Shown: one piece after another, positions 13,986 to 46,984 of the stretch
Layout of the letters: the number at the start of each line of letters is the position of its first letter
Numbering within the stretch: the first letter of the stretch is position 1
Assembly: GCA_045807765.1 (NCBI GenBank)
Contig: JBJMGU010000011.1
Coordinates: 25,398-89,397, forward strand
Source of the DNA: Blastocatellia bacterium
GTDB lineage: Bacteria > Acidobacteriota > Blastocatellia > UBA7656
Direction of reading: 5' to 3'
DNA: 64,000 nt
The notes under the pieces: model-generated
What the model was told of the DNA's origin: nothing
Seen by the model: the letters and a program-made list of their open reading frames with translations, nothing else
Databases searched by the model: none
Program-made: the position numbers and the translations under genes

Positions 13986-15470
13986 ATGGCTGAAACGGTC
14001 AGAGTTCGTTTTGCACCCTCGCCCACCGGTTATCTGCATGTCGGCGGCGCGCGCACGGCGTTGTTTAACTGGCTCTTTGCGCGCAAGCACAATGGCGTCT
14101 TCATCCTGCGTATCGAAGACACAGACGTGCAGCGCTCGTCTGAGGCGATGGTGCAGGGCATCCTCGCGGGGCTGCACTGGCTCAGGCTTGACGCCGACGA
14201 GGGGCCGTTCTTCCAATCGTCGTTCGGCGAAGCGCATCGCGCCGCCGCCCTCCGCCTCGTCGAAGAAGGCAAAGCGTATTACGACTTCACGCCGAAAGAA
14301 CAGGGTGACGACCGCACTGTCAAAGAGCGCATACGCGAGCAGGCGCGCGAAGGCCGTGAGCCCAACCCCTACCGCGACCTGCCGCTTACGGAAGCGCGCA
14401 CGCGCCTTCAGGCAGGCGAGACGGCGGCGATCCGCTTGAAGGTTCCCGAATCGGGTGTGTCGCGCTTTGATGATATGGTCTATGGCCCGCAGGAGCGCGA
14501 TTACACAGACATTGAAGACCTCGTGCTGATTCGCTCCGACGGCCACCCGCTCTATAACCTGTCGGTGGTCGTTGACGACATCGAGATGGGCATCACCCAT
14601 GTGATTCGCGGCCAGGATCATCTGACCAACACCCACAAGCAGGTTTTAATTTACAGTGCGCTTGGGGCCGCTGTGCCGCGCTTCGGCCACCTGCCGCTGA
14701 TCAACGCGCCGGGTAAAGAGAAGCTCTCGAAGCGCAAGCACGGCGAGATCGTTTCGGTGACGACCTACAGGGATCGCGGCTTTCTGCCCGACGCCTTTGT
14801 GAATTTCCTCGCCTTGCTCGGCTGGTCGCCGGGTGGCGATCAAGAGATCATGTCGCGCCAGGAATTGATTGAGCAATTCTCGCTCGACGGCGTCAACAAA
14901 GCGGCGGCGATCTTCAACTTCAAAGAGAGCGATCCCCTTGATTGGACCGACCCGAAGGCGCTGTGGATGAACGGCGAATACCTGCGCCGCATGCCGATAG
15001 ACGATCTGCTGCCGCTGGTCGCCGAGCAGTTGAAGAAGCACGGCATCTGGCGCGACGAGTTTGCAACCAATGAGCGCGACTGGTTCGCTCGCACAGCCGA
15101 GTTGTTGCGGGCGCGCTATCGCACGGCGGTTGATTTTGCCATACTGGGGCGGCCTTACTTTTCAGATGACTTTGAATACGAGCCGGCGGCGATAAAGAAG
15201 AATTTGAAAGACGAGCGGCTGAAAGACCTGCTGCCCGGCCTCGCCGACCAGCTTGCGGCGCTCGACACGTTCACGCACGACAGCGCCGAAGCGGCTCTCA
15301 GAGCCTATTCCGAGGCACAGGGCGTCAAGGCGGGGCTGTTGATTAACGCCTCACGCACGGCGCTCACGGGACAGGCGGTCGGGCCGGGGATGTTCGACAT
15401 TATGGTCGCGCTCGGTCGCGAGAAGAGCGTCGAGCGGCTGCGCCGCGCCGTCGAACAGGTCGGCAAATGA
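13986..15470 (+). CDS. gltX: Glutamate--tRNA ligase
   Basis: Class I aaRS with PSPTGYLHVGGARTALFNW (HIGH-type motif) and KLSKRK (KMSKS). 494 aa. Confidence 0.9.
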   Translation: MAETVRVRFAPSPTGYLHVGGARTALFNWLFARKHNGVFILRIEDTDVQRSSEAMVQGILAGLHWLRLDADEGPFFQSSFGEAHRAAALRLVEEGKAYYDFTPKEQGDDRTVKERIREQAREGREPNPYRDLPLTEARTRLQAGETAAIRLKVPESGVSRFDDMVYGPQERDYTDIEDLVLIRSDGHPLYNLSVVVDDIEMGITHVIRGQDHLTNTHKQVLIYSALGAAVPRFGHLPLINAPGKEKLSKRKHGEIVSVTTYRDRGFLPDAFVNFLALLGWSPGGDQEIMSRQELIEQFSLDGVNKAAAIFNFKESDPLDWTDPKALWMNGEYLRRMPIDDLLPLVAEQLKKHGIWRDEFATNERDWFARTAELLRARYRTAVDFAILGRPYFSDDFEYEPAAIKKNLKDERLKDLLPGLADQLAALDTFTHDSAEAALRAYSEAQGVKAGLLINASRTALTGQAVGPGMFDIMVALGREKSVERLRRAVEQVGK

Positions 15471-23082: not shown

Positions 23083-23133
23083 CTATAGAATCCTATCTAG
23101 TCAGGATTCTACATAGGGTAGCACGAACGGTCA
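23083..23133 (-). promoter_or_regulatory. Promoter/operator for the ADOP pair: -35 TTGACC, 17-bp spacer, -10 TAGAAT overlapping palindrome TAGAATCCT-N8-AGGATTCTA (putative PadR operator)
   Basis: The 40-bp sequence is the reverse complement, with about 95% identity, of the sequence upstream of padR at 26043-26080. Confidence 0.6.
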
Positions 23134-23467
23134 AGCGACTTCTTTGGCATGGGCAGGGCTGTGGTCGGCCAGCCTTGATGCCGCGCCCCGGCGACCGGGC
23201 AGGCCCGGAGCGCGGCGGGCAACTGTCGGCTTTGCGGCCTTGACACTCGCTCGGCTTTTCGTTGAGATTCAAGTTCATGCTGTCGCCTTCTCACCCGTTC
23301 GGGTTAATCCTGGTATATCGCGCACATTCTCTATTTTATCAGGATGCGTGGTCAGATCGTTCAGTCTGCGCCCGATGAATGGCAAGCGAAACCACGACCG
23401 CAAATGGGTAATGAGCCGGGCGCGGCAATTCATGGCAAAGCCAGCCGGGTGGTGCGTTCAAAGAAAA

Positions 23468-25981
23468 ATGGATACGAAAGCCCCAAACCTGATTCCCAGC
23501 GGCATTGAGCCGGTTGATAAGTTACTGGGCGGCCTCGAAAGCGGCCAGTTGTATCTGGTTCACGGCGAGGGCGCGGGCAAGTCCCTATTCGGCATCAAGT
23601 TCCTCATTGAAGGTCTCAAGCGCGGCGAGCACGGCGCGCTGGTCATCCGCTATTCGCCCGAAGACGCCGTGCGCCGCTTCGCCCGCCTCGGCTACGATTG
23701 CCTCGAAGACGTTTACAGCGGGCGACTGGTCATCCTCGAATACTCGGACGACATCATTCAGCAGGTTTCGCGGCTGCGCGAGATGACGCCGGTGCTGCGT
23801 GAGCTGGAATGGCTGCTCGGCGAAACCAAGCCGCAACGATTGATCTTCGACCCGGTCACCAGCCTGATTGCCGGCGTCGGCAATCTGCAATCACGCGCCG
23901 GCGAGTTCACCGCCTGGTCGCGCTCATTCGGCGCAACGGTCGTCTACATCGCCAATGGTGACGCCGATGTGGTCGAAGCCGTCAAGCCGCAGACGGCGGA
24001 AGTTGTGCGCTTCGAAGTTAAAGACATCGGCGAGCGAGCCGCGCGCTTTATCAATTTTGAGAAGGCGGGCATCGCCGACCAGCCGATTGAAGTAGACCCG
24101 TCGCGCGGCATCTTTTTGCTCGACCGCGGGCGCGGCCCCGATCATTTCTTCTCGATCTTCCAGGCGACGCCGCCGGCAACCAGCGCGGCAACGCCTGAGC
24201 AAAAGCCAGCCGCGCCAATCGCGCCGCCGGTTTCAGAGATCACCGCGCCGCCTGTTGAAACCAGCGCGCCGGAGCCGGTCGTTGAATCTCCGGCGCTCGG
24301 CAAGCTAAGCGATTTCGATCTCGATAAGTTGCTTGAGCCCTTCGCTGAGATGGCTAGAACCGCTACGCACGCGACGATGGAGGCGACTAAGGAGACGACA
24401 GAGAGCGCGCCGCCAACCGAGCCAACGCCACGCGCCGCTGATGCACCGTCTGAGTCACAAACGACCACGCCGCAAGCCGACGCGCCGCAAGCCGCAGACA
24501 TCCAGACTCTACCGCAAGTGGCAGACACGACACCGCTGCCGCCGGCTGTGCCGCCTGTCGCCGTCGCGACGCCTGTGCAAGCCGTGAGCGATGCGCCAGC
24601 CGATCTCTTCGCCGATTTGATTGACGAATTATCCAAGTCCGAGTCACCGCTCGACATCGAAGTACCTGAAGCGGCGGCGACTCAGTCTGCCGGCCAGCCC
24701 CCAGCCCCCACGCTGCCGGCGGGCAAAGACCCGCGCGCAACCGGCGAGCTGACTTATCCGCCGGCGGCCTTCTCTGCCGACGAGCCGGCGACTGCCGACG
24801 AAGCAGCGTCTGCCGAAGCCTCAGCGCCTGCGACAGACGAAACGTCTGCAAGCGCCCCCGACGAAGCACCGCCGATGCCACATCGCCGCGCTGCCGACCT
24901 CAAGCTCGATTCGGCTCTGGCCGCGCACGCCACCGAAGCGCTATTGCGCCCACCCGACGCGCCGAGCGAGCCGCCTGCCGAAGCGATTGCCATCGAGCCG
25001 GTCGCGGAAGCCGCCGAGCCGGTCGCGGTTCAGCCAAAAGATTGCAAGGTGCTGGTCATCGATGATGACCTGGCCTCGTGTGCTCAGGTCGCGCAGACGC
25101 TCGACAGCTACACGCTCGATATCGTTCACGACGGCATGAGCGGGCTGGCCAAGCTGATCTCTTATAAGCCCGATCTCGTCGTCTTGAGCCTCGACCTGCC
25201 GATCATTGATGGCTTCAAGGTGCTGGAGCATATTCGCCAGGGCTTGAACGTGCCGGTTATTCTGACCACGGCGACGCGGATGCGCGCCGGTGACCGCGTG
25301 CTGGCGGCGGAACTGGGCGCAGACTACTACCTGGCGAAGCCTTACAGCCAGAACGAGCTGCGCCACAAAGCGCGGCAGTTGATCGCGCGCTATCGCGGCA
25401 TCAGCTCGTGGATCGCGGGCGCAGCGGCGACCGGCAAGACAGCGGAGCCGGCCACAGAGCCACAGCCCGAGCCGATGGGCGCTCCCGCCGCTGTTGATCA
25501 CTTCACTTCTTATCAGCAATTCACCGCGCAGGTCGAAGAGCGTGTGCGCGCGACACTGGAAAACAACGCCACCTTTGCCATCGTCGGCTGCCGGGTTCCG
25601 CAGATGACCGCCAAAGGCGGGCACGTTGCCTTGCGGTTGTATGATCTGGTGCGCCGGCTGGTGCGCGAGAACGATCTGCTATCAACCAACCCGCGCAATG
25701 ACATTGTGATCTTACTGACCGACGCCAACGCCAACGGCGCGCGGGCCTTCATCAACCGCCTGCGTGAGCGCGTCGTCAACGACCTGCACCAGGAGCCGGG
25801 CATCTGGCTGCGCAGCTTCCCTGACCTTGAAGAAGCGGCGGGCGCCAAAGACTGGACCTACCATTCGGGCAACGGCGGCAGCGCCAGCCGCCGCGCCAGC
25901 GACCGTTCCGCGGCCTCTGATGCTGCGCACACCGAAGACCACACAGAAGCGCCGCACCGTGATTTCTCCGAGACGCTGTGA
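23468..25981 (+). CDS. Multidomain signalling protein: KaiC/RecA-superfamily ATPase domain, about 300-aa Pro/Ala/Thr/Glu-rich disordered linker, CheY-like receiver, degenerate (inactive) GGDEF domain
   Basis: Walker A GEGAGKS and Walker B LVILE in a KaiC/RadA-like fold (IPSGIEPVDKLLGGLESGQLYLVHG). The REC domain has KVLVIDDD...DLVVLSLDLP...KPY. The C-terminal region matches GGDEF topology but has NPRNDIV in place of GGDEF. The start is uncertain: alternative ATGs at 23375 and 23411, and the ORF-track ORF begins at 23144. Confidence 0.65.
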   Translation: MDTKAPNLIPSGIEPVDKLLGGLESGQLYLVHGEGAGKSLFGIKFLIEGLKRGEHGALVIRYSPEDAVRRFARLGYDCLEDVYSGRLVILEYSDDIIQQVSRLREMTPVLRELEWLLGETKPQRLIFDPVTSLIAGVGNLQSRAGEFTAWSRSFGATVVYIANGDADVVEAVKPQTAEVVRFEVKDIGERAARFINFEKAGIADQPIEVDPSRGIFLLDRGRGPDHFFSIFQATPPATSAATPEQKPAAPIAPPVSEITAPPVETSAPEPVVESPALGKLSDFDLDKLLEPFAEMARTATHATMEATKETTESAPPTEPTPRAADAPSESQTTTPQADAPQAADIQTLPQVADTTPLPPAVPPVAVATPVQAVSDAPADLFADLIDELSKSESPLDIEVPEAAATQSAGQPPAPTLPAGKDPRATGELTYPPAAFSADEPATADEAASAEASAPATDETSASAPDEAPPMPHRRAADLKLDSALAAHATEALLRPPDAPSEPPAEAIAIEPVAEAAEPVAVQPKDCKVLVIDDDLASCAQVAQTLDSYTLDIVHDGMSGLAKLISYKPDLVVLSLDLPIIDGFKVLEHIRQGLNVPVILTTATRMRAGDRVLAAELGADYYLAKPYSQNELRHKARQLIARYRGISSWIAGAAATGKTAEPATEPQPEPMGAPAAVDHFTSYQQFTAQVEERVRATLENNATFAIVGCRVPQMTAKGGHVALRLYDLVRRLVRENDLLSTNPRNDIVILLTDANANGARAFINRLRERVVNDLHQEPGIWLRSFPDLEEAAGAKDWTYHSGNGGSASRRASDRSAASDAAHTEDHTEAPHRDFSETL

Positions 25982-26030
25982 ACTGAACCCGCCCGCACCG
26001 CGAAATCTTAGCGGCTGCCTTGACCCGCCA

Positions 26031-26080
26031 AGCTACCCTATGTAGAATCCTGACTAGATAGAATTCTATCTGCGAAATCT
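26031..26080 (+). promoter_or_regulatory. padR promoter/operator: -35 TTGACC (26031-36), -10 TAGAAT (26054-59), palindrome TAGAATCCT-N8-AGAATTCTA
   Basis: The hexamers and 17-bp spacing were read directly. The palindrome overlaps the -10 and the transcription start region, which is the classic arrangement for an autorepressor. Confidence 0.6.
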
Positions 26081-29197: not shown

Positions 29198-29432
29198 GTA
29201 GCAGTAGGCAGTAGGCAGGCGATTTCTAAGCTCCGTTAGGAGCGTAATGTTTATAGTCGTCGCGGCGCTTAAACAATCAAGCTCCGTAGGAGCGGAATGT
29301 CAACATCGCGCTCCTACGGAGCTTGATCTTTATTGGAATGTCTTGACTATAAACATGGCGTCCCTACGGGACTAGGTAACTGCCTACTGCCTACTGCCTA
29401 CTGCGTACTGCCTGCTGCCTACTGCCTACTAC
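29198..29432. repeat. Hairpin element, family B, copy B2 with nested inner palindromes (gctccgtaggagcg motif three times)
   Basis: Outer arms are gtagcagtaggcagtaggcag (29198-29218) and ctgcctactgcctactgcctactgcgtactgcctgctgcctactgcctactacc (29380-29432). There is an inner perfect palindrome gatcaagctccgtaggagcg...cgctcctacggagcttgatc. The right arm overlaps the stop of the convergent gene at 29429. Confidence 0.8.
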
Positions 29433-31165
29433 CTCGTCACATTGCCGCAATCCATTTCGGTGCCGTTGTCGGTGCTGCTCCAGTGCAGGCGATTCCAGCC
29501 GCCATTGTTCTGCTCGGAGAAAGTCATTCCATAAAAGTAACAGGTGCCGTCGTTGCGTTTGACGGCGACCGCGCCGTTGATGGCGCGGCGCGTGATGATG
29601 CCGCTGATCGGATGACGGTAGAGCGTCCACTCGCGCTCGGTGATGACGGCGCGCACAGGTACGCCGGGCTTGCCCTGGTCGGTCAACATGCCGCGCGTCG
29701 CCTCGACCATGGCGCGCTCAAGAACCGGGTCGCTCTTGACCGCCCTGGGCAAAAAGACATTCTTCAATGCGATCTTGTGATAAGCGATGGCGCGCTCAGC
29801 CATCTTCTCTTGGCCGTTCGAGCAATCAATCTCGAACTCGCCTTCGGCAAGGTCGTGGCGGGAACTCATATAGATGGCGCTGACGCGGAAGCCGAGCGTG
29901 TGGCTGCGCGGTGAGCATTCGGCGAGCAGCCTGGCGTAACGTGACGAGCCTTCGCATTCTTTCGCCGTCTCAAGTGCCGGCAGCACCTCAATCGGCATGA
30001 ACGTCCACTGCTCCATTGGCTTAGTCATTGGATAATTGAAGCTGGTCATCTCGTTGCCGTCGAGGAAGACGGTCATCTGCATTTCGGTATCACCGGAATG
30101 CGCGCCGTCGGCCATCTCGGCAATCGTCCCTTTGAAGTAGGCCGTCGCATAAACTGTATCGGCGAGCGAAAACGTTTTGGCGACTGCCGACACCTCTTCC
30201 TGGCCGGCGACCAGCGGCTTGCGGCTGTAGACGACCTTCCCGGTGTTCTGCTTGTGGAATGCGCCGGCGTAGACTTTGCTGCCGAGATCGCGCTCGACCG
30301 CGCCGACAATAGCTTCGGCATCCTTGCGAATCCTGAGCGCCTGCGATTGATCGGGGAACGACAACAGCACGCCGTTGGCAAGCATCAGGGCGATGTCTGC
30401 GGCCTCGGTCGCTGCGCCGACTGCGCCGGCACCCTTCTTCTTTTCAACGTAGGCTTTCTCGATGGTGGCGTTGATCTCGCCGATCAAAAAGCTACGCACG
30501 AACTCGTCGTACTCTTTCGGGAATTTCGTCAGCAGTTGCTCGACGTGGTCGCTGATCTCGTTGTCGGTGCGCAGGCCGGGATGTTTGGCGAGCGCGTCCT
30601 TGACCTTCTTGATGGTCTCGCCATAGCCCAGCTCTTTGCACGATTCAAAATAGCGCTCGGCGTCGCCCTTCGTCTGTGTGTAGATGCCTTTCCAATAGGT
30701 CTGCGGAATCAGGTGCTCTGACGCGTAGGCCATTTTGCTGATGAAGGCTTTGATCTCGTCGAGCGAGTCGTCGTCGGCCTTGCGATCATTGGTCCGGCTG
30801 TCATTCGCCTTGCGGTCATTGACTGCGCTGTCATTCTCGTCTTCGCTCAACAACCGGCTGTAACCGGCGATCTCATGCTCATATGCCGCGGTCGAATAAT
30901 CGCGGTAGAGACTTTTGATGCCACCGATCAGCTCTTTGGCGTACTTCGCCGCGGCGCGTGCGCCTTCGATGTCGGGCGGATTCTCTTTTAGCTCTTTCCG
31001 CAGATCACTCATAGCCTGTTCGAGGCGGCGCACTTCGATGCGGCTGTCGGTTGAAATGCTTGGCTTGCGCTTTGGCACCGATACTTCGATCTTGATCTGT
31101 GTGGCGGCGAGCGGCTCTAAGGCGAACAGCACCGTCAGCGTCCAGATAGCAAATAAGCGTGTCAT
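29429..31165 (-). CDS. Hypothetical secreted protein (Lys/Glu-rich, lower GC than neighbours)
   Basis: The ORF spans 29429..31180. The probable start is MTRLFAIWTLTVLFALEPLAA, a signal peptide. I recognise no domain. Codon usage is AT-richer than the surrounding genes. Confidence 0.55.
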   Translation of the reverse strand: MTRLFAIWTLTVLFALEPLAATQIKIEVSVPKRKPSISTDSRIEVRRLEQAMSDLRKELKENPPDIEGARAAAKYAKELIGGIKSLYRDYSTAAYEHEIAGYSRLLSEDENDSAVNDRKANDSRTNDRKADDDSLDEIKAFISKMAYASEHLIPQTYWKGIYTQTKGDAERYFESCKELGYGETIKKVKDALAKHPGLRTDNEISDHVEQLLTKFPKEYDEFVRSFLIGEINATIEKAYVEKKKGAGAVGAATEAADIALMLANGVLLSFPDQSQALRIRKDAEAIVGAVERDLGSKVYAGAFHKQNTGKVVYSRKPLVAGQEEVSAVAKTFSLADTVYATAYFKGTIAEMADGAHSGDTEMQMTVFLDGNEMTSFNYPMTKPMEQWTFMPIEVLPALETAKECEGSSRYARLLAECSPRSHTLGFRVSAIYMSSRHDLAEGEFEIDCSNGQEKMAERAIAYHKIALKNVFLPRAVKSDPVLERAMVEATRGMLTDQGKPGVPVRAVITEREWTLYRHPISGIITRRAINGAVAVKRNDGTCYFYGMTFSEQNNGGWNRLHWSSTDNGTEMDCGNVTR

Positions 31166-31349
31166 TATCGTTTCCTCCAAAAAGTCGTTTTATCCATCCG
31201 TTTGATTGCGCCCCGAGGCGCAACGCGTTTTAACTGCACGCCGGTTGAAGGTGGCGCTCGCGGCGCGGTATTACTGGCGGGCAAAAAAAGTTTGGCAGTT
31301 GGGCGCGGCGCTAAGGCGGCGAAACGCTGTGCGCGCTTCAGGCGAATGG

Positions 31350-31379
31350 TTGACAATGGCAGAAGCGGCGCGGTCAAAT
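31350..31379 (+). promoter_or_regulatory. Putative promoter of the sigma gene (-35 TTGACA, 18-bp spacer, -10 TCAAAT)
   Basis: The hexamers were read directly. The call is weak. Confidence 0.3.
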
Positions 31380-31419
31380 CAGCTTCAGCGTTTTATCAGT
31401 GAGCGCATTGTGAGGGGCT

Positions 31420-32469
31420 GTGGCGATCCGAGAGCTTGACGACATTCTTCTGCCGCTGGTCGAAGCCGGCGACACGGATGAGGCCGACACGCGGCTGGCG
31501 GCGGTATTGGCCGAGCATGCCGCGCCGGTCATTCGCGGCGTCGTCAAGAGCAAGCTGCGCGTGTCGCTAAGCCCCGCAGATGGCAGCGCCGCCAATCAAG
31601 ATGCGCTTGAGCTTGCAAACGACGTGCAGGCCGCGCTCGTCACCGAGTTGCGGCGATTGCGGAGCGCCGAGTCGCGGGAGCCGATCAGCGACTTTCGCGG
31701 TTATGTCGCGGTGCTCGCCTTCCACGCCTGCTACCGCTACCTGCGCCGCCGCAACCCCGAGCGCCACTCGCTGAAAAGTAAGATACGTTATATCCTTTCG
31801 CACGCCCCTGAGTTCGCACTGTGGCAGGATGCAAACGGCGCATGGCTGTGCGACAGCGCGGCGCGGCGCCGTTCGCCAACTCAGGCGGCGCGCGCAAAGC
31901 CGAGCGACGAAGCGTTGTCGGCGCGCCTGTTGTCGCGGCTGACCGATCCGGCCAGCACAGGACTCACTGACCTGCTCGCCGCCATCGTCGAAGAAGCGGC
32001 GGGCGCGATGGAGCTTGACGAGGTGGTCAGCTTGGTGGCCGCCTTGCAGGGCATTCGCCCTATAGCGGAACAGGGCGAAGGCGACGCAGAGGGCGAAGAC
32101 CGGCAGCGCCAGGAGCTAGCTGACCCGCGCGCAGACGTGGCCGCGGAAGTTGACCATCGCCTCTACCTTGAGCAACTGTGGCGGGAGATTGGCGATCTGC
32201 CGCCGCGCCAGCGCCTCGCCCTGTTGTTGAACCTGCGCGACGCGCAGGGGCGCGACGTGATCGCCTTATTGCCCATCACCGGCGTCGCCAGCCTGCGGCA
32301 GATCGCCGACGTGCTCGGCATACCCGCCGAAGAATTTGCCGCGCTGTGGAACGACTTGCCGATGGATGATGCGCGCATTGCCGAACGACTGGGCATCACG
32401 CGACAGCAGGTCATCAATCTGCGCAAGTCGGCACGTGAACGATTGATGCGGCGGATGAAATATCATTGA
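31420..32469 (+). CDS. ECF-like sigma-70 family factor with extended linker (GTG start)
   Basis: Region-2-like N-terminus and a C-terminal region 4 HTH (DLPPRQRLALLLNL...SLRQIADVLGIPAEEFAALWNDLP...RQQVINLRKSARERL). 349 aa. Confidence 0.6.
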   Translation: MAIRELDDILLPLVEAGDTDEADTRLAAVLAEHAAPVIRGVVKSKLRVSLSPADGSAANQDALELANDVQAALVTELRRLRSAESREPISDFRGYVAVLAFHACYRYLRRRNPERHSLKSKIRYILSHAPEFALWQDANGAWLCDSAARRRSPTQAARAKPSDEALSARLLSRLTDPASTGLTDLLAAIVEEAAGAMELDEVVSLVAALQGIRPIAEQGEGDAEGEDRQRQELADPRADVAAEVDHRLYLEQLWREIGDLPPRQRLALLLNLRDAQGRDVIALLPITGVASLRQIADVLGIPAEEFAALWNDLPMDDARIAERLGITRQQVINLRKSARERLMRRMKYH

Positions 32470-32529
32470 AGCCGCAGGCCGCGCGGTAATATGCGAAGCG
32501 CGGCGCGCCCTTAACCAGATGGGGAACTG

Positions 32530-33903
32530 ATGGCAGAGCACCTTTCACAAGAGACGCTGACGCGCTACGCGGGCCGTGCCCTGTCGGCGACCGAGTTGCT
32601 GGCGGCGGACGATCATCTCGCTGCCTGCGCGGCGTGTCGCGAGCGCCTTGAAGTTAAGAGCGAGGCTCGCGCCGTCGTTCAGGCGTTGCGCGCCGAATCT
32701 GCCGCGACTCCTTTCATGCACCTCGACTACGAGCAACTGGAAGCGGTCGTTGACGGCACTGCTGCCGAGGTCGAGCGCGAGATCGTCAGCAGCCACACAC
32801 AGCTCTGCGCGGCGTGCGCCGACGAGTTGAATGAGCTGATGGCGTTGAAGTCCCAGTTGCAAGCCCGCAGCGCGTCGCGACACGCCGCGGACGATGCAGT
32901 GAGTCAGCCGGGACGAGACGGCAATGCAGAACCTGCGCCGGTGGTCTCTTTGAAGGCATATCGGCAACAGCGCGAGGTGCGTCGTCAGCCGCGCGCCTGG
33001 CTAACGCGATGGGCGGCGGTGGCGGCGGTGCTGGCTGTCTGCGCGCTGGTCGCGTGGATGGTGTGGCGTCCGTCGCCGTCTGAGCAGGTGGCCGGCGTGA
33101 ATCAGAATTCCGGCGTGAGCGAACCGGCAACGACCGGCACATCAACCAACGATCAGAAAGCAGCGGCGAATCACAATGCTTCGTCGGGAACCGCAGAGCC
33201 GCAGCCGCCGGCTTCGCCATCTGCGGTTGTCGCGCTTAACGATGGAGCGCGACGTGTAACGCTCGACGCCGAAGGCAGGCTTGCGGGTTTCGATGGTCTT
33301 GCGCCTGAAGCGGCGGAGGCTGTGCGGCTCGCGCTTAAGCGGCAACGGGTCGAAGCGCCCGCTGGCTTAGCGGCTATCACTGAGAACGCCGGCACGTTGA
33401 TGAGCGGGGGCGGTGACGGCATCGCTTTCAAACTCATCAGCCCCATCGGCACCGCCGTGCAGAGCGCGCGGCCCGTATTCCGCTGGCAACCGCTCGCGGG
33501 CGCAACAAGCTATGTCGTGAAGGTGTTCGACGCAAACTTCAACCGCGTGGCGATGAGCGAGCCGCTCGCGACAACGACGTGGACGCCGAGCCAACCGCTT
33601 GCCGTTGGAGCAATCTATTCGTGGCAGGTGACGGCGGCGAAGGATGGCGGCGAAACGACTTCGCCTGCGCCGCCTGCGCCGCAAGCCCGCTTCAAAGTGA
33701 TCGAGCGCGCAAGGCTCGCCGAGCTGCGCCGCGCCGAACAGAGCTACCCGGATTCGCACCTGCTGCGCGGCGTCCTCTATGCGCGGGCCGGATTGTTAGA
33801 CGACGCCGAGCGCGAGCTGCAAGCATTGCTCAAGGCCAACCCCGCGAACGAAGCCGCGAGAAAACTGCTGGCCAGTGTGCATGCGCTGCGGCAGAAGCGA
33901 TAG
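32530..33903 (+). CDS. Putative anti-sigma factor (zf-HC2-like N-terminus, single TM, extracytoplasmic Fn3-like and TPR-like C-terminus)
   Basis: The Cys/His pattern is HLAACAACRERL...CAACADEL. There is a TM segment (WAAVAAVLAVCALVAWMVW) and a C-terminal TPR-like helix pair. It is adjacent to the sigma gene. Confidence 0.55.
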   Translation: MAEHLSQETLTRYAGRALSATELLAADDHLAACAACRERLEVKSEARAVVQALRAESAATPFMHLDYEQLEAVVDGTAAEVEREIVSSHTQLCAACADELNELMALKSQLQARSASRHAADDAVSQPGRDGNAEPAPVVSLKAYRQQREVRRQPRAWLTRWAAVAAVLAVCALVAWMVWRPSPSEQVAGVNQNSGVSEPATTGTSTNDQKAAANHNASSGTAEPQPPASPSAVVALNDGARRVTLDAEGRLAGFDGLAPEAAEAVRLALKRQRVEAPAGLAAITENAGTLMSGGGDGIAFKLISPIGTAVQSARPVFRWQPLAGATSYVVKVFDANFNRVAMSEPLATTTWTPSQPLAVGAIYSWQVTAAKDGGETTSPAPPAPQARFKVIERARLAELRRAEQSYPDSHLLRGVLYARAGLLDDAERELQALLKANPANEAARKLLASVHALRQKR

Positions 33904-33917
33904 GTTCTGTTACCTGC

Positions 33918-36900
33918 TCATTGCGGATCACCGACGACGACGAAGCCTGCCCAGTAAAAGGGGTGCTTCCAGCGCTCGCCGCGCAGGACTTTCAACATTG
34001 CCTGCCGTAACGCCTGCGCCTTGCCTTCGCCATTCATGGCGCGGCGGTGGAACTCGACCATCAAATCGTTGGTGCTGGCCGCGTCTACTTTCCACTGGCT
34101 GACGACAGTGGTCGGGCTGCCGGCGACGAAGACCGACCAGGTCAGGCCGATGACGCCTTCGCCGGCGCCGACGCGACCGCGCGCCGTCTCGCACGCCGAC
34201 AACACGACCATCTCTGCCGGCAGGTCGAGGTTCATGATCTCCCACGCTTCGAGCAGTCCGTCTTCCTTGCTGTTGTTCTCATCCTGCGCCAGCACAAGCC
34301 GCGAATACATCGGGCTGTCATTGTCGAGAATGCCATGCGTCGCCAGATGCAGGACGCGGTACTTCGCGGCTTCGGCTTTGACGCGCGCCTCGCTCGCCTC
34401 GCGGCCCGTGTAGACGCGGCTATTCGCGACGCCATAAATCTGACTGAGCGTCTTGACCTGTGCTTCGGTCTCCGGCAAGGCGGCAAGCGGGCCGCCGAGC
34501 GTCGTCGCCTGGCCGGCGTGCCCGCTGAATGCCGGGTTGCCAATGGCCAACAGCGTCGGTGCCGATGTCTGCGCCCGCCGTTTATGTTGCCGGCGCATCT
34601 CGGACAGCGCCGTGAGCGAAGGCGCATAGGCGACCGCCTGACGCTCAATCAAGTAAGCCTCTTTCGTCATCAACGCTTGAAAGGGAAGATTCCAGAGCGC
34701 GCCGTCGGGGATGATGACGAGCGCATCTTTGCCGGCGAGTTGCTCCTGCGCCGGGCCGAGTAACAAATTGTAAAGCTCGCGCGCCGGGCCGCGGAATTCC
34801 AGATCGCGACTGGCGAGTTGATGGCGGAATTGCTCAGCGCGTGCTGTCAGCTCCGTCTCTTTGATGTTGAGCGTGTAGCTGCGCACATCGCTTGTGCCAT
34901 CGGCCTTGCGCGTGATGACGAAGAGAAATGTCTTTGCAGAAGTCACGACATATTCGAGCAAGGCACTGTGCGAATCAACCAGTAGGGCACCCGCCTGATC
35001 GGCGCTTAAGGCAGGCGATTGGCCGCGCTGGGTCTTCAGCTCGGGGTGCGAGGCATAGAGCGTGATCTGGAAGGCTTCATATTCAACACGCGCCTGCTGC
35101 AAGCGCGATTTGAGGTCGGCCAGTCGCGCCGCGTTCGGCTTACTGCTCGCCGACTCGCGAGCCACCTGCGCGTTGAGCAACGCGAGCGAGCCGGCCAAAC
35201 TGCTTTCGCGCTCGCGCTCTTCGCGGGTCATCGCTTTGGTGATGTTGGCCCGCCCGCCGCGCAACACGTCTAGCAGCACGCGCGCCTTGGCGCGCTCGGC
35301 ATAGGCGAGCGCTTCACCCGTCCGGTTGTCGCGCAACAACAATTCGATCATGTCGTGATAGGGGTCGAGCTTGTCTTCAAAGAATCGCTGCTGTTCTTGC
35401 TCGCCGCCCGCGACGCGCGCCCGCAGCGATTCGATGGCGCGGATCGCTTCGTCGAGCGACTGCCGCGCGCTTGTCGTTTGATTCAGCGCGCGGTACGCAT
35501 CGGCCATGTACTTTTCAGCGCGCCACAGCGTATCGGGGCTCTCGGTCTCGCGGGCCAGTTGGGCGGCGCGCCCGGCGGCTGTGAGCGCCGGTTCGGGACG
35601 GCTCGCGGCGAGATGTGCTTCGGCGATGTCGAGCAGCGCGCCCGCCATTGCGACTTTGTTCTTCATGCCTTCGGCGACCGCCAAGCTCTTTTCATAACTG
35701 GCGAGCGCCGCCGCCGGCGCGTTTTGCAGACGGTAACAGTTGCCGATGTTCTTCAGCGTGCCGGCAACGCCATCTTTGAAGTTGAGCGATTCGTAGAGCG
35801 AAAGGTTTGCTTCAAACTGCTTGAGCGCGGCGTCAACCTGACCCTGGACCATCAGGACGTTGGCGATGTTGCCTCGCAAGTCAGCGACCAGGCGCGGCTC
35901 GCCGAGCGGTTCGACAAGCGCGAGGCTCTTGCGATAAGCGGCGAGCGCCTGCTCGTAGTTCTGCTGGCGCAGCATCACGTCGCCCATATTCATCAAGGCC
36001 GTCGCCTGGCTGCGCACGTTCTTGACCGACTCGGCGAACTTCATGCTTTTTTCATAAAGCTCAAGCGCTTCGGCGTGGCGGCCCTGTTCGAGATAGATGC
36101 TGGCGATGTTATTCATCTGCTGAGCGCGCCCGGCGGCTGCCGTCGGGCCGCCGATGGCTTCGTACATCGCCAGGCTCTGCTGCCAGAGCGCCAGCGCTTG
36201 CTGAAAGTCGCCCTGATTCCAATACAGGTAGCCGACATTATTCAGCGTGTTGGCGACACCGAGATCGTCTTTCAATTGCTCGCAGAGCGCCAGCGCCAGT
36301 TGGTAAGCGTCCATCGCCGTCGCGTAGTCGCCCGCCTCCTGATACTGATTGCCGACGAGCTTAATCTCGTAAGGCAGCCGCAGCGTGATGAGGTTTTCTT
36401 CCTGCTTGAGCAAGGCGACGCGCTCAGCGCTGCTTTTCATCTTGACGAGCGCCGCCGCCAAATCTCTTTCGGCAGGCGAGTCGCTCCACAGCCGCCACTC
36501 GCCGGCCTCTTTGACGAACCGCATCGAACGCTGCATGCGATGAAACGGCGCGATCTCCTTGCCGCTCTCGGCATCGATCACGGTCAGGTCAGCGGCGACA
36601 CGAACCCGCGCGCCGTCAGCGCCGAACGTCACCCGCATCACGTTCAGATGATTCACCGTGATGCTCCGCGCGTCCTCGAACAGGCCGCCGATTGCATGGC
36701 GTATCGCCACATAGTCGGGCGACTGCGCGCTCCAGAGCGCGGCGACTGCATCGATCTCTTTGCGGGCGAAGGCGGCAAAGTATCGCTGCACCAGATCGCG
36801 CAGCCCCGCTTCGTCCGCTGCCTCTTGCATCACAAGGCGCGAAGGGGCGCGTGCGGCTTGCACGGGCAGCGCGCCGACGAGCGCCAGGATGATGATCGCT

Positions 36901-37007
36901 GAGATGATTCTTCGATGAGACACAGTAGCCCCCCGGTCATGCGCTTGCGAATCGGTCGCCGCGCAAGACTCACTTCTAAATGATTGGTTGGGATGGAGCG
37001 CCAACAT
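33918..37007 (-). CDS. TPR-repeat plus CHAT (caspase-like peptidase) domain protein with N-terminal NTF2/SnoaL-like domain
   Basis: Multiple TPR units (LNNVGYLYWNQGDFQQALALWQQSL and others). The C-terminal CHAT region has a His/Cys dyad context (VLHLATHG ... VVLSACETA). 1029 aa. A possible signal peptide follows an internal GTG (VSHRRIISAIIILALVGALPVQA). Confidence 0.8.
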   Translation of the reverse strand: MLALHPNQSFRSESCAATDSQAHDRGATVSHRRIISAIIILALVGALPVQAARAPSRLVMQEAADEAGLRDLVQRYFAAFARKEIDAVAALWSAQSPDYVAIRHAIGGLFEDARSITVNHLNVMRVTFGADGARVRVAADLTVIDAESGKEIAPFHRMQRSMRFVKEAGEWRLWSDSPAERDLAAALVKMKSSAERVALLKQEENLITLRLPYEIKLVGNQYQEAGDYATAMDAYQLALALCEQLKDDLGVANTLNNVGYLYWNQGDFQQALALWQQSLAMYEAIGGPTAAAGRAQQMNNIASIYLEQGRHAEALELYEKSMKFAESVKNVRSQATALMNMGDVMLRQQNYEQALAAYRKSLALVEPLGEPRLVADLRGNIANVLMVQGQVDAALKQFEANLSLYESLNFKDGVAGTLKNIGNCYRLQNAPAAALASYEKSLAVAEGMKNKVAMAGALLDIAEAHLAASRPEPALTAAGRAAQLARETESPDTLWRAEKYMADAYRALNQTTSARQSLDEAIRAIESLRARVAGGEQEQQRFFEDKLDPYHDMIELLLRDNRTGEALAYAERAKARVLLDVLRGGRANITKAMTREERERESSLAGSLALLNAQVARESASSKPNAARLADLKSRLQQARVEYEAFQITLYASHPELKTQRGQSPALSADQAGALLVDSHSALLEYVVTSAKTFLFVITRKADGTSDVRSYTLNIKETELTARAEQFRHQLASRDLEFRGPARELYNLLLGPAQEQLAGKDALVIIPDGALWNLPFQALMTKEAYLIERQAVAYAPSLTALSEMRRQHKRRAQTSAPTLLAIGNPAFSGHAGQATTLGGPLAALPETEAQVKTLSQIYGVANSRVYTGREASEARVKAEAAKYRVLHLATHGILDNDSPMYSRLVLAQDENNSKEDGLLEAWEIMNLDLPAEMVVLSACETARGRVGAGEGVIGLTWSVFVAGSPTTVVSQWKVDAASTNDLMVEFHRRAMNGEGKAQALRQAMLKVLRGERWKHPFYWAGFVVVGDPQ

Positions 37008-43122: not shown

Positions 43123-43557
43123 AATCTTCTTCCGCAGTCGCAACTCCAGCCGATTCATCTCACCGTCGTCGGTTTCGTGGTCGTAACCGCAAAGGTGGAG
43201 CGTACCGTGGATGACCAGCTCGCTCAGTTCGCGGGCGAGCCCGTGGCCGGCTTCCCTGGCCTGACGCTGCGCCGTGTCGGTGGCGATCACAATGTCGCCG
43301 AGAAAGTCGGCGCTTTCAGATAAGCTGAAGCCCGCCTCGTCCTGCGCGTTTGCGACCGGGAACGATAGCACGTCGGTTGCGTAACCTTTGCCTCGGAATT
43401 CCCGATTCATTTTGCGGATGGCGCGGTCGCGCACAAAGGCGACGGTGAGTGCTGCCCCGCGCCAGCCCATCCCTTCGAGCGCGGCGGCGGCGACCCGCGC
43501 GATCTGCTCTGCATCTATGGCGCAGAGGCGTTGTCGGTTGACGACTTCAATCGCCAC
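43105..43557 (-). CDS. ybeY: rRNA maturation endoribonuclease YbeY
   Basis: 150 aa with the metal-binding motif HGTLHLCGYDH. Confidence 0.9.
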   Translation of the reverse strand: MAIEVVNRQRLCAIDAEQIARVAAAALEGMGWRGAALTVAFVRDRAIRKMNREFRGKGYATDVLSFPVANAQDEAGFSLSESADFLGDIVIATDTAQRQAREAGHGLARELSELVIHGTLHLCGYDHETDDGEMNRLELRLRKKILGAGD

Positions 43558-45907: not shown

Positions 45908-45919
45908 AAAATGATGAAT

Positions 45920-46984
45920 AGACCTCGTGCGCAGTAAGAATGACGGAGGCCCCAGCCTCACTAGTGGAGCATCAATCACTCAGGCTGCTGCTTGCATCAG
46001 TCGCTCCTGCGTCCGTAGATTCGCCAACCCGCACACCGTGCGGCAGACTTGATCGTATGCTTTTTCTCGATGCCGATACTTGCTGCCCATCACTTGATAC
46101 TTCTTCACTCGCGAGATCGCATGCTCAACGACGATTCGCCGCTTCGCCAGTCGCCGATTCCGCCGCTTCTGGCTGGCCGTCAATGGATGATGCTTACTTG
46201 GCTTCTTCGGCAATTCCACGGCCCGTTGCGGATAATGTTTGGCCAAGCCCATATATCCCTTGTCGGCAGCAATCTGCCAGTCGTCGGGCAAGGCGGCCTC
46301 CACCCCGGAGCGGTGAAACAAACTCAGGTCGTGGGTCCGCCCACCGACGCTCTTCGACACATGGCCAATCCAGCCGTTGGCCAAGACCGTCATCTGCACC
46401 TTGCGCGTATGCCGCTTCTTCTTGCCCGAATAGCGATGCTTGCGCTTGGTCTTGTTTTGCGGGCGGTTTATGGGCTGTTCGGTGGCATCAACAATGACCT
46501 CGCGCAACTCTGGATATTGCTTGAAAAGCTCGTCCAGGCTGCCAATCTTACGGCGGCGCTGGGCGGCGGGCGGCTTAGGGGCCAAGTGTCGGCGGGGCTG
46601 GGCTGGCACGGGCAACTGTTGTTCAAGAAGCGGCAAGAGCGTGCGCAGGTTGCGGGAGATGTTACTGGCATCAAGGCCAAAGAGATAGCCGAGCAGATCG
46701 TTGGTCAAGTAAAGACGCAAAAAGACCAGGGTGAGCAGGGTGCGGTCAGGCAGCGACAAGCGGAAGCCGCAGCCGCCACCGACTTGGCGCTGACGGTCTG
46801 GGCGGGCCAGGCGCTGGGCATTGAACTGTGGGTAGGCCTTGTGCATCTGGCTAAGCAAGCGATCAAACTGCGAGATGGACAGGCCCGCAAAGCGGAGAAA
46901 GTGCGGCGGACGTTTACGGAGCTTTTCGACGTTGAGCATGATTTTGTCAGTATGCAATAAGTTCGCTTATTGCGCACGAGGTCT
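45920..46984 (-). mobile_element. IS5-family (IS4/IS5 superfamily) insertion sequence, about 1065 bp, 19/20-bp terminal inverted repeats (TAGACCTCGTGCGCAGTAAG / CTTATTGCGCACGAGGTCTA), 3-bp AAT target duplication
   Basis: The TIRs and flanking AAT direct repeats were read directly. A single transposase ORF spans the element. The inner right end has the palindrome GCAATAAG-ttcg-CTTATTGC. Confidence 0.8.
45980..46957 (-). CDS. IS5-family DDE transposase
   Basis: 325 aa. The C-terminal signature RRNRRLAKRRIVVEHAISRVKKY (Y-R-E-K region) is typical of IS5/IS4 DDE transposases. The protein is basic and includes GKKKRHTRK. Confidence 0.8.
   Translation of the reverse strand: MHTDKIMLNVEKLRKRPPHFLRFAGLSISQFDRLLSQMHKAYPQFNAQRLARPDRQRQVGGGCGFRLSLPDRTLLTLVFLRLYLTNDLLGYLFGLDASNISRNLRTLLPLLEQQLPVPAQPRRHLAPKPPAAQRRRKIGSLDELFKQYPELREVIVDATEQPINRPQNKTKRKHRYSGKKKRHTRKVQMTVLANGWIGHVSKSVGGRTHDLSLFHRSGVEAALPDDWQIAADKGYMGLAKHYPQRAVELPKKPSKHHPLTASQKRRNRRLAKRRIVVEHAISRVKKYQVMGSKYRHREKAYDQVCRTVCGLANLRTQERLMQAAA

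Follow-up and report, generated by a model that had tools for sequence, protein, structure and literature searches.

A conserved Blastocatellia protein joining KaiC-like, receiver and degenerate GGDEF modules most likely senses c-di-GMP

The window analysed here, i.e., a 64,000-nucleotide stretch of DNA from a Blastocatellia bacterium, carries a genuine gene, conserved in soil Acidobacteria of the class Blastocatellia, for a three-module signalling protein whose most likely ligand is c-di-GMP, a second messenger. We read its C-terminal domain as most likely a c-di-GMP receptor because the GGDEF motif is gone, yet the I-site residues R733-x-x-D736 and R764 are kept. The reading we favour, with about even confidence, is that the protein would act as a cytoplasmic signalling scaffold, in which a c-di-GMP-receptor dead GGDEF domain and a receiver domain (REC) are joined to an ATP-binding KaiC-like hub by a docking linker.

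Results

The product of the gene (Table 1) is identical to P0001, a Blastocatellia MAG protein catalogued at NCBI as an "ATPase domain-containing protein," and belongs to a Blastocatellia-centred family of more than 300 homologue clusters; family column counts given below (n/120) refer to the best 120 of these. The preliminary description had considered that two genes might be separated by a frameshift in the linker, an alternative that we rejected, as the reading frame is continuous, the best 120 listed homologues all run the full length, and conservation of the linker motifs is in frame. A longer reading frame from a TTG at 23144 was also rejected in favour of the ATG at 23468 because the N-termini of homologues align at M1 and the upstream alignment shows no coding sequence but DNA conserved in part. 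Mean pairwise identity is highest in the KaiC-like domain (79%); at 66%, versus 31% in the linker, it shows the GGDEF-like domain to be under selection as a unit.

Table 1. Positions in the window of the gene, its domains and motifs, and flanking regulatory elements
Feature	Positions	Strand	Remarks
Promoter and operator, leftward ADOP pair	23085..23135	-	TTGACC-17-TAGAAT; palindrome TAGAATCCTATCTAGTCAGGATTCTA; outside gene
Upstream element CTGGTATATC...CATTCTCTATTTTAT	23310..23345	+	Extended -10-like, ~150 nt before ATG; conserved
Complete signalling gene	23468..25981	+	837 aa + stop: KaiC-like domain, disordered linker, REC, degenerate GGDEF, short tail
KaiC/RecA-like domain	23492..24127	+	aa 9-220, single copy; Pfam PF06745 E 7.4e-17
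P-loop HGEGAGKS	23561..23584	+	aa 32-39; GKS kept, first Gly position non-canonical
R61-Y62	23648..23653	+	Position of KaiC catalytic Glu-Glu (tFEEsP -> iRYsP); alignments to four KaiC chains
Walker B-like strand RLIFD	23837..23851	+	aa 124-128; aligns to KaiC RVxIDS strand
Linker	24140..25027	+	aa 225-520, A/P/T/E-rich, predicted disordered (pLDDT <50)
Linker motif 1 ADLFADLIDELSKSESPLDIE	24599..24661	+	aa 378-398, conserved
Linker motif 2 HRRAADLKLDSALAAHATEALLRPP	24881..24955	+	aa 472-496, conserved
REC domain	25043..25402	+	aa 526-645; Pfam PF00072 E 1.1e-16; PmrA E 1.3e-17
Ser574 codon, phosphoacceptor position	25187..25189	+	PmrA alignment lvvlS vs lillD
Degenerate GGDEF-fold domain	25496..25837	+	aa 677-790
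REND, RxxD I-site motif	25664..25675	+	R733, D736; five residues before GGDEF slot
PRNDI in GG(D/E)EF slot	25691..25705	+	hhalign register; GcbC and SadC alignments
R764	25757..25759	+	Invariant Arg, 22 residues past GGDEF slot; aligns to Arg in P0176 and GcbC
Promoter and operator, rightward PadR-ADOP unit	26019..26069	+	Operator copy; outside gene

The C-terminal domain, previously described as a degenerate GGDEF, is not called as such by Pfam, with no match of PF00990 to the protein at E<=1 and GGDEF_2 at E 0.078, under its cutoff; it is the predicted fold and profile-profile comparison that assign it to GGDEF. A profile search against PDB sequences returned non-significant matches only (E ~1), the top three of which were GGDEF domains in the same register, and the domain profile matched only ~65 proteins among 1.84 billion representatives. 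Since Pfam misses the domain and its profile reaches so few proteins, the case for GGDEF homology is built on the predicted fold together with weak profile matches. Three independent alignments (hhalign, GcbC, and SadC) put REND on RxxD and PRNDI on GGDEF. The GG(D/E)EF active-site motif is thus absent, in agreement with the earlier view of a catalytically dead domain. The first strand of the domain, β1, reads FAIVGCRV at the place of the metal-binding Asp strand.

The presumed ligand-binding residues, by comparison, are strictly kept: R733, D736, and R764 do not change in any of 107 sequences, and we take R764 to stand where PleD R390, the third I-site Arg, does. In Blastocatellia, N744 and D745 are invariant as well; they vary in distant members, whose slot is PEHQS, ADRRP, or RDQRS with RxxD still kept. 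The proposal that the domain is a candidate c-di-GMP receptor is strengthened, at the level of sequence, by the invariant RxxD at canonical spacing and by the PilZ-fused paralogue described below, with RxxD conservation taken as suggestive of c-di-GMP binding and not as proof of it. The GGDEF hairpin carries a family-specific invariant block, S739-T740-N741-x-R743-N744-D745, which hints at a role beyond or instead of I-site binding.

The KaiC/RecA-like nature of the N-terminal domain, claimed in the preliminary description, was confirmed by a PF06745 score of 61.9 bits, above the curated cutoff of 26.6, and by a fold match to KaiC CI. In phmmer, the domain matched KaiC CI with E 1.7e-18, with KaiC sequence alignments ending near residue 138-166; AlphaFold2 (AF2) modelled it with a pLDDT of 82-94, and Foldseek aligned the predicted domain to KaiC CI (4tlb) with E 1e-15 and a TM score of 0.77 over 228 columns. 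KaiC CI and Pyrococcus PH0284/PH0186 are its nearest solved relatives, and FlaH chains were absent among its PDB sequence matches.

The Walker motifs of this domain, at first considered intact, are so only in part. The GKS of the P-loop is conserved (G37 invariant, K38 in 118/120, S39 in 119/120), along with H32 and G33, which are invariant, and so is the Walker B Asp, D128. The P-loop as a whole departs from Walker A GxxxxGK[ST], either because His occupies the first Gly position or because the loop is shorter by one residue, and phmmer introduces a one-residue gap when aligning HGEGAGKS with KaiC GTxGTGKT; the distant members P0170 and P0171 have the canonical GxxxxGKT. The catalytic glutamates after β2, which we take to be E77/E78 of KaiC, are missing and replaced by R61-Y62, with R61 found in 119/120 and Y62 in 120/120 relatives, and Arg present at this position in distant members too. 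Because both catalytic glutamates are lost, the autokinase or ATPase role once suggested for the domain is weakened. With its P-loop Lys/Ser and Walker B Asp kept, the domain would probably bind ATP but not carry out ordinary hydrolysis or autokinase reactions. Slow phosphotransfer could nonetheless occur, since euryarchaeal ArlH, in which Gln replaces the catalytic Glu, still autophosphorylates (bioRxiv 10.1101/2021.03.19.436134).

The receiver domain scored 61.4 bits with PF00072 (cutoff, 30.2) and was modelled with a pLDDT of 88-97. Its acidic pair D533 and D534, as well as T601 and K624, are present and conserved. The phosphoacceptor Asp, reported earlier to be retained, is not: by alignment with PmrA, the acceptor position is S574, and D576 lies at acceptor+2. 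Among the 120 relatives, column 574 is Asp in 98, Ser in 16, and Asn in 6; the 16 Ser574 sequences are the 16 closest relatives, with at least 63% identity, and the complete active site (D533, D534, D574, S/T601, K624) is present in 98/120. In most family members we read the domain as a regular phospho-receiver; in the window clade, with Ser in place of the acceptor Asp, it probably serves as a structural or regulatory module that works independently of phosphorylation. It resembles the aspartate-less receiver (ALR) class outlined in PMC4395418 in having a REC fold with the acceptor Asp replaced and the other four active-site residues remaining, and differs in that the loss is recent and clade-specific.

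The linker between these modules ranges from 207 to 368 aa across the family and contains two conserved motifs with predicted helices. Motif 1 (AF2 helix 380-389, block pLDDT 74) recurs in the tails of PilZ-KaiC-like paralogues, where it reads FFAMLDELKSFASAPDPD; motif 2 (AF2 helix 475-493) has an RRxS-like consensus in most family members. Both would probably serve as docking sites for partners or for the protein's own domains.

These paralogues represent the sole other architecture with the specialised KaiC-like domain, PilZ+KaiC-like, in about 60 clusters, beyond which scores fall from E 1e-44 to 1e-12, the level of true KaiC. In their PilZ domains, the RxxxR and DxSxxG motifs are both intact, and at five loci these paralogues are part of a conserved cluster, PilT-RecX-[PilZ-KaiC-like]-[PilZ-PatA_N]. 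The fusion provides an independent c-di-GMP link for the KaiC-like domain; in literature searches we found no published account joining a KaiC-like domain to PilZ or c-di-GMP.

As described previously, the gene is located between two copies of a PadR-type palindrome, an arrangement from which a functional link with the ADOP permeases had been proposed. ADOP/PadR cassettes are found near the gene in 6/6 examined members of the window's clade, in at least three arrangements, i.e., ADOP(-)/gene/PadR-ADOP, gene-GlnRS-ADOP(-)-PadR(-), and ADOP(-)ADOP(-)PadR(-)/gene. In Asp574 relatives (48-57% identity), gltX and a PaaK-like ligase flank the gene, and neither ADOP nor PadR adjoins it. Both operators overlap the -10 boxes of promoters firing away from the gene, and ~200 nt from the left operator is the gene's upstream element, whose TGGTA and ATT...TT do not vary across 12 loci, the distant L050 included; this element is the probable promoter/leader of the gene itself. 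On synteny and promoter orientation, we rejected a functional ADOP/PadR linkage, and as far as gene order and DNA motifs can tell, there is no conserved link between the gene and the adjoining permease genes. Neighbours seen around the gene were gltX, GlnRS, the PaaK-like ligase, and ADOP/PadR, with no conserved partner gene adjoining it across the loci compared; recX/recA neighbours were noted besides the gltX adjacency. Rfam at gathering thresholds gave 0 matches to a riboswitch or other known RNA in the whole window, leader included.

Discussion

The domain combination had been thought to be without a described counterpart, which is not the case: archaeal KaiC-REC fusions and inactivated KaiC domains ("iKaiC"; fusions of Methanosarcinaceae) have been described (PMC5847659), and Escherichia coli BcsE consists of a RecA-like (KaiC-overlaid) N-terminal domain, REC*, and GGDEF* and binds c-di-GMP at an RxxD I-site (PMC7439463). 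With BcsE, the window protein shares this order of modules and no detectable sequence relationship, with an hhalign probability of 1% and no BcsE/GIL family among Pfam matches at E<=1. Unlike BcsE, whose Walker A is severely diverged, it keeps the P-loop GKS; in its REC only the acceptor departs from the canonical state, and in most relatives not even that; its modules are separated by a disordered linker of 300 aa; and its C-terminal domain is closer to canonical GGDEFs than to BcsE. KaiC is the best sequence and fold match for the N-terminal domain, which is present once here and not as tandem CI+CII, with Arg-Tyr in place of Glu-Glu. Because there is a single KaiC-like domain and no Pfam match to KaiA or KaiB in any window gene scanned, the window protein is not a bona fide KaiC clock protein.

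In ArlH/FlaH and archaeal KaiC-like signalling ATPases, as predicted for the window protein, a single KaiC-like domain is an ATP-binding regulator and not a motor. ArlH binds ATP without ATPase activity in standard assays, and this binding is needed for engaging the hexameric PilB/PilT-like ATPase ArlI (bioRxiv 10.1101/2021.03.19.436134). The window family differs in being bacterial, in its fusion to c-di-GMP-type modules, and in the Arg that takes the catalytic place of Glu or Gln; its PilZ paralogue adjoins PilT, and the window gene itself does not. Among GGDEF proteins, PleD/WspR-type REC-GGDEF regulators are active cyclases with GG(D/E)EF, unlike the window protein with its PRNDI slot and, in its clade, no acceptor Asp. 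The RxxD five residues upstream of the slot is common to the PopA/PelD/BcsE-type receptors and the window protein, whose domain is shorter (~115 aa) and too divergent for PF00990 detection; PopA and PelD, like the GGDEF modules of FimX and LapD, have neither a KaiC-like domain nor a long disordered linker.

By the scaffold model, the C-terminal domain would be a GGDEF fold unable to make c-di-GMP that serves as a receptor via the I-site, as in PopA, PelD, and BcsE, while the N-terminal domain would be a hub for oligomerisation or partner binding, as ArlH and the BcsE N-terminal domain are. The protein might instead work as a conventional response regulator that has an active KaiC-like ATPase or autokinase for its output, with ATP turnover switched by phosphorylation of REC or, in the window clade, of Ser574, and with the GGDEF-like domain as a ligand-free dimerisation or regulatory appendage. 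The complete REC active site in most relatives, the conserved GKS and Walker B Asp, the canonical P-loop of P0170 and P0171, the residual activity of ArlH, and the RRxS-like consensus of motif 2 all fit this model; however, Arg-Tyr replaces both catalytic glutamates family-wide, distant members included, invariant RxxD and R764 in a dead cyclase are hard to explain without a ligand, and the PilZ-fused paralogue points toward c-di-GMP, so that we judge it unlikely.

A candidate output of the scaffold, suggested only by the paralogue's neighbours, is the type IV pilus ATPases. As a refinement, the protein may partner a hexameric secretion ATPase of the PilT/PilB type under c-di-GMP control and so regulate type IV pilus dynamics. 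The precedent is the ArlH-ArlI pair, and the evidence is the conserved PilT cluster of the paralogue, which shares both the KaiC-like domain and the linker motif; that evidence comes from the paralogue only, and at the loci compared the gene is never beside pilus genes, which makes this model doubtful at present. That the protein is a true, very divergent BcsE orthologue, assembling or activating a cellulose or other exopolysaccharide synthase complex, is very improbable, for all the likeness in module order: BcsE membership was rejected on sequence, and no bcs (cellulose) cluster accompanies the gene or lies nearby. We give hardly any credence to an energy-sensing or clock-like module that is PadR-co-regulated with the flanking ADOP permeases and gates efflux; the palindromes on both sides and the cassettes near every clade member examined speak for it, and against it stand the Asp574 relatives, the shifting cassette arrangements, the outward promoters next to a conserved upstream element of the gene's own, and a lone KaiC domain lacking catalytic Glu and KaiA/KaiB companions among the genes scanned.

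Acidobacteria are among the most abundant bacteria of soil, and we know of no experimental work on signal transduction in them. Current generic names in this family ("ATPase domain-containing protein," "response regulator") conceal the GGDEF-like domain entirely. The family is a natural experiment as well: one clade has lost the phosphoacceptor of its receiver and conserved all the remaining active-site residues. The family of more than 300 clusters and its PilZ sister of about 60 would add a KaiC-like pseudo-ATPase to the outputs of c-di-GMP effectors. BcsE, so far an enterobacterial oddity, would gain an independent architectural parallel, which suggests that a RecA-like hub with REC and a dead GGDEF is a recurrent solution. 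By a bolder analogy, which we consider a long shot, Blastocatellia would have evolved their own bacterial version of the "KaiC-like signalling hub" of archaea. In it, a specialised KaiC-like domain that binds ATP without hydrolysing it, and that has a docking motif of its own, would read c-di-GMP via interchangeable modules, PilZ in one paralogue and REC-GGDEF* in the other, and would act on hexameric secretion ATPases, e.g., PilT, much as ArlH does on ArlI. If true, this would be a previously undescribed class of c-di-GMP effector.

Architecture and conservation of the KaiC-like protein

The preliminary description had left room for two genes separated by a frameshift in the low-complexity linker. 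A homologue search with a cut-off of E ≤ 1e-3 returned 307 clusters and established that the gene is real and full length: the frame is uninterrupted, the best 120 clusters all encode proteins of 757-900 aa with both KaiC and receiver (REC) domains, and one homologue (P0001) matches the window protein at 100%. Homologues carry generic names ("ATPase domain-containing protein," "response regulator," "KaiC/GvpD/RAD55 family RecA-like ATPase"), and their taxon, where named, is Blastocatellia in every case. A longer version of the same frame, starting at TTG 23144, was disfavored, because homologue N termini align at ATG 23468, the gap to the upstream neighbor in relatives goes down to ~190-240 nt, and the DNA upstream of this ATG is conserved as noncoding sequence.

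As proposed previously, Pfam recognized KaiC (PF06745; aa 9-195, E 7.4e-17) and Response_reg (aa 528-635, E 1.1e-16); the sole Pfam trace of the C-terminal domain was a sub-threshold GGDEF_2 match (aa 702-769, E 0.078), and among the 25 best NCBIfam matches the receiver alone was recognized. An AlphaFold2 model built with a 107-sequence alignment contained confident domains at aa ~20-220, 525-645, and 680-785, with pLDDT below 50 over aa 225-520 except for short helices at 285-300, 380-389, and 475-493. Because of this low confidence and its composition (A 22.6%, P 16.9%, T 9.5%, E 9.5%), the 296-aa linker (207-368 aa across the family) may fairly be called PATE-rich and disordered. Averaged over sequence pairs in the family, identity is highest in the KaiC-like domain (79%), followed by REC (77%) and the C-terminal domain (66%), and drops to 35% in the tail and 31% in the linker; two linker motifs are strongly conserved (see the table). 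Within motif 2, the family consensus (RH.RASD.KID) includes an RRxS-like site, at which the window protein has Ala. A C-terminal motif, DPRESYIDFLExL, is kept in most relatives and recognizable in distant members, and is degenerate in the window protein (HRDFSETL, 25940-25978).

The KaiC-like domain appears to have lost its catalytic glutamates

KaiC was the best phmmer match in the PDB (E 1.7e-18, CI better than CII), and Foldseek of the predicted model retrieved KaiC CI (4tlb; E 1e-15, TM 0.77 over 228 columns) together with the Pyrococcus KaiC-like proteins PH0284 and PH0186, in agreement with the earlier domain call. The claim of intact Walker A and B motifs was half right. In the P-loop (HGEGAGKS), H32, G33, and G37 are invariant among the best 120 homologues, K38 is found in 118/120 and S39 in 119/120, and the Walker B residue D128 is invariant, but phmmer aligns this loop to KaiC GTxGTGKT only with a one-residue gap, and the catalytic Glu-Glu of KaiC (tFEEsP) pairs with R61-Y62 in all four displayed alignments. 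R61 is present in 119 and Y62 in all of the same 120 homologues, and distant members also have Arg at the first Glu position. The nucleotide-binding residues are thus under selection, but KaiC's general base, required for hydrolysis or phosphotransfer, has been lost, which weakens the autokinase idea. In standard assays no ATPase activity was seen for ArlH, an ATP-binding protein whose engagement of the hexameric ATPase ArlI depends on ATP binding (bioRxiv 10.1101/2021.03.19.436134). We propose a comparable behavior, ATP binding without normal hydrolysis, and by this analogy the KaiC-like domain would be an ATP-binding, poorly or non-hydrolyzing hub.

The receiver of the closest relatives lacks the phosphoacceptor

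Alignment of REC with PmrA (E 1.3e-17) paired kpdlvvlSldlpiidgf with kfdlillDlelpmmdgm, which places Ser574 at the phosphoacceptor position; the Asp previously taken for the acceptor is D576, at acceptor+2. Of the best 120 homologues, 98 have Asp at column 574, 16 have Ser, and 6 have Asn; D533, D534, S/T601, and K624 are conserved throughout. Ser574 occurs in precisely those 16 homologues that are closest to the window protein (≥63% identity). The family receiver is ancestrally normal, and that of the window's clade is aspartate-less, a class described in PMC4395418.

The C-terminal domain is a putative I-site receptor

At E ≤ 1e-3, a profile of the C-terminal domain matched just 65 of 1.84 billion representative proteins, nearly all of the same KaiC-REC family, with a weak tail of genuine GGDEF proteins. 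The proposed GGDEF kinship, sub-threshold in Pfam, was upheld by hhalign against one true GGDEF from this tail (94% probability, E 1e-7), as was loss of the motif: R733-E-N-D736 falls on RxxD, PRNDI on GGDEF, and R764 on the Arg 22 residues past the motif, a register identical in sub-significant PDB matches to GcbC and SadC. R733, D736, and R764 are invariant in 107/107 sequences. Because distant members (P0170, P0171, P0173, P0163, and P0174) keep RxxD while their GGDEF slot drifts (PEHQS, ADRRP, RDQRS, ESGDL), the domain is best read as a dead cyclase whose I-site is its best-conserved feature across the wider family. PopA belongs to the same I-site receptor group as PelD and BcsE. Receptors such as PelD and BcsE show a conserved I-site in a dead cyclase (PMC7439463), and we infer that the present domain would likewise bind c-di-GMP there.

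In three genomes (loci L043, L045, and L048), the gene coexists with a paralogue whose KaiC-like domain is 53-60% identical, has an HG…GKS loop, and lacks the catalytic Glu. Its partner is an N-terminal PilZ module with RxxxR and DxSxxG intact, and its acidic tail bears motif 1 (FFAMLDELKSFASAPDPD). This PilZ-KaiC-like architecture comprises ~60 clusters and was not found in the literature searched, in which no paper paired "KaiC-like" with "c-di-GMP" or "PilZ." Since scores drop from E 1e-44 to 1e-12 (true KaiC) beyond these two families, the specialized KaiC-like domain is virtually confined to proteins with c-di-GMP-type modules; the paralogue is an independent pointer to c-di-GMP and, with the invariant R733/D736/R764, strengthens the candidate-receptor idea. 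The cluster PilT(T2SSE)-RecX-[PilZ-KaiC-like]-[PilZ-PatA_N/DUF4388]-RlmN is conserved in five Blastocatellia loci, which suggests that the paralogue, and it alone, may relate to a pilus ATPase as ArlH does to ArlI.

The paralogue always follows recX, and recA adjoins the gene for P0170 (L052:1096-5259), a distant member that has a canonical Walker A, a short linker, and a long extension at its C terminus; RecA-superfamily regulators recur near KaiC-like genes of both kinds.

Genomic context

Features of the gene and its surroundings (window positions unless a locus is named)
Feature	Position	Strand	Detail
Gene	23468-25981	+	uninterrupted ORF, 837 codons + stop
51-nt repeat, left	23085-23135	-	promoter TTGACC-17-TAGAAT at 23134-23106
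51-nt repeat, right	26019-26069	+	promoter TTGACC-17-TAGAAT at 26020-26048
Upstream element	23310-23318		CTGGTATAT, then CATTCT.CATTTAAT-like
Linker motif 1	aa 378-398		ADLFADLIDELSKSESPLDIE
Linker motif 2	aa 472-496 (24881-24955)		HRRAADLKLDSALAAHATEALLRPP
ORF in insert	29429-31180	-	no Pfam match at E ≤ 1e-5
ORF in insert	31420-32469	+	no Pfam match at E ≤ 1e-5
ORF in insert	32530-33903	+	no Pfam match at E ≤ 1e-5
SnoaL/TPR/CHAT protein in insert	33918-37007	-	1029 aa
DDE transposase	45980-46957	-	DDE_Tnp_4 with HTH_Tnp_4; abuts 7TM-HD receptor gene 43547-45979
PilT-RecX-PilZ-KaiC-like cluster	L045:5743-9711; L048:5797-9859; L043:5577-9752; L054:5110-9035; L055:5137-9212

The gene does lie between two operator copies, as first described, and a functional linkage with the flanking permease (ADOP) and regulator (PadR) genes had been suggested. 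Both repeat promoters point away from the gene, with a palindrome (TAGAATCCTnnCTAGnnAGGATTCTA) covering each -10 box. Taking one genome per GTDB species, we obtained 45 loci, all from Blastocatellia or Acidobacteriota MAGs (a few titled "uncultured Clostridia"). Most have the order OMP-VIT/VWA-gltX (GluRS)-gene-PaaK-like AMP-ligase(-), gltX lying directly upstream in distant members included, and none with the gltX-gene-ligase order has ADOP/PadR beside the gene. Only members of the Ser574 clade, to which the window protein belongs, have these cassettes next to the gene, and their layout takes at least three forms: ADOP(-)/gene/PadR-ADOP (window, L001, L004), gene-GlnRS-ADOP(-)-PadR(-) (P0007, P0014), and ADOP(-)-ADOP(-)-PadR(-)/gene (L007). 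Moreover, an upstream element, CTGGTATAT plus CATTCTnCATTTAAT (23310-23345), is common to 12 loci, distant L050 included (upstream-DNA alignment A3); it appears to be the gene's own and, lying ~150 nt before the start codon, implies a long conserved 5′ leader. Rfam detected no known RNA in the window, this leader included. Altogether, the results leave the ADOP/PadR linkage unsupported.

In most loci (L002-L046, L050, and L051), gltX and the gene share a strand with a 190- to 330-nt gap; in the window, GlnRS and two ADOP genes split gltX (13986-15470) from the gene. The two ADOP units have in common an inverted ~160-nt block (promoter, palindrome, and the initial ~70 nt of the permease gene; coordinates also include 22975-23043/26432-26500), and such inverted repeats could mediate rearrangements among relatives. 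A PadR gene accompanies only the right unit; the left one would therefore need control in trans. An insertion of ~7.6 kb (29429-37007), missing from related loci, separates the right ADOP gene from the ligase. Genes around the DDE transposase are otherwise housekeeping (Era, CorC, PrmA, RsmE).

Relationship to known systems and proposed function

The earlier observation was largely sound, except for KaiC catalytic competence and the REC acceptor; of its interpretation, the c-di-GMP receptor idea stands. The view that no described family has such an architecture fails. Escherichia coli BcsE has a RecA-like N-terminal domain, once modeled and overlaid on KaiC, with a degenerate Walker A, followed by REC-like and GGDEF-like domains, the latter binding c-di-GMP at RxxD (PMC7439463), and archaeal KaiC-REC fusions and "inactivated KaiC" domains have been described (PMC5847659). 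The window protein shares the domain order of BcsE, but membership in that family was rejected: no sequence relationship to BcsE was found, bcs context is absent, and BcsE is a poorer match to the C-terminal domain than canonical GGDEFs are. The most likely ancestor is a REC-GGDEF protein of the PleD/WspR type, which would have become catalytically inactive and acquired the specialized KaiC-like domain by fusion; in this scenario, the protein parallels BcsE in architecture without being its orthologue. We consider the chances about even that it is a c-di-GMP-binding scaffold, in which the C-terminal I-site domain would bind c-di-GMP, the KaiC-like domain would form an ATP-binding pseudo-ATPase hub, and the receiver would work independently of phosphorylation in the Ser574 clade.
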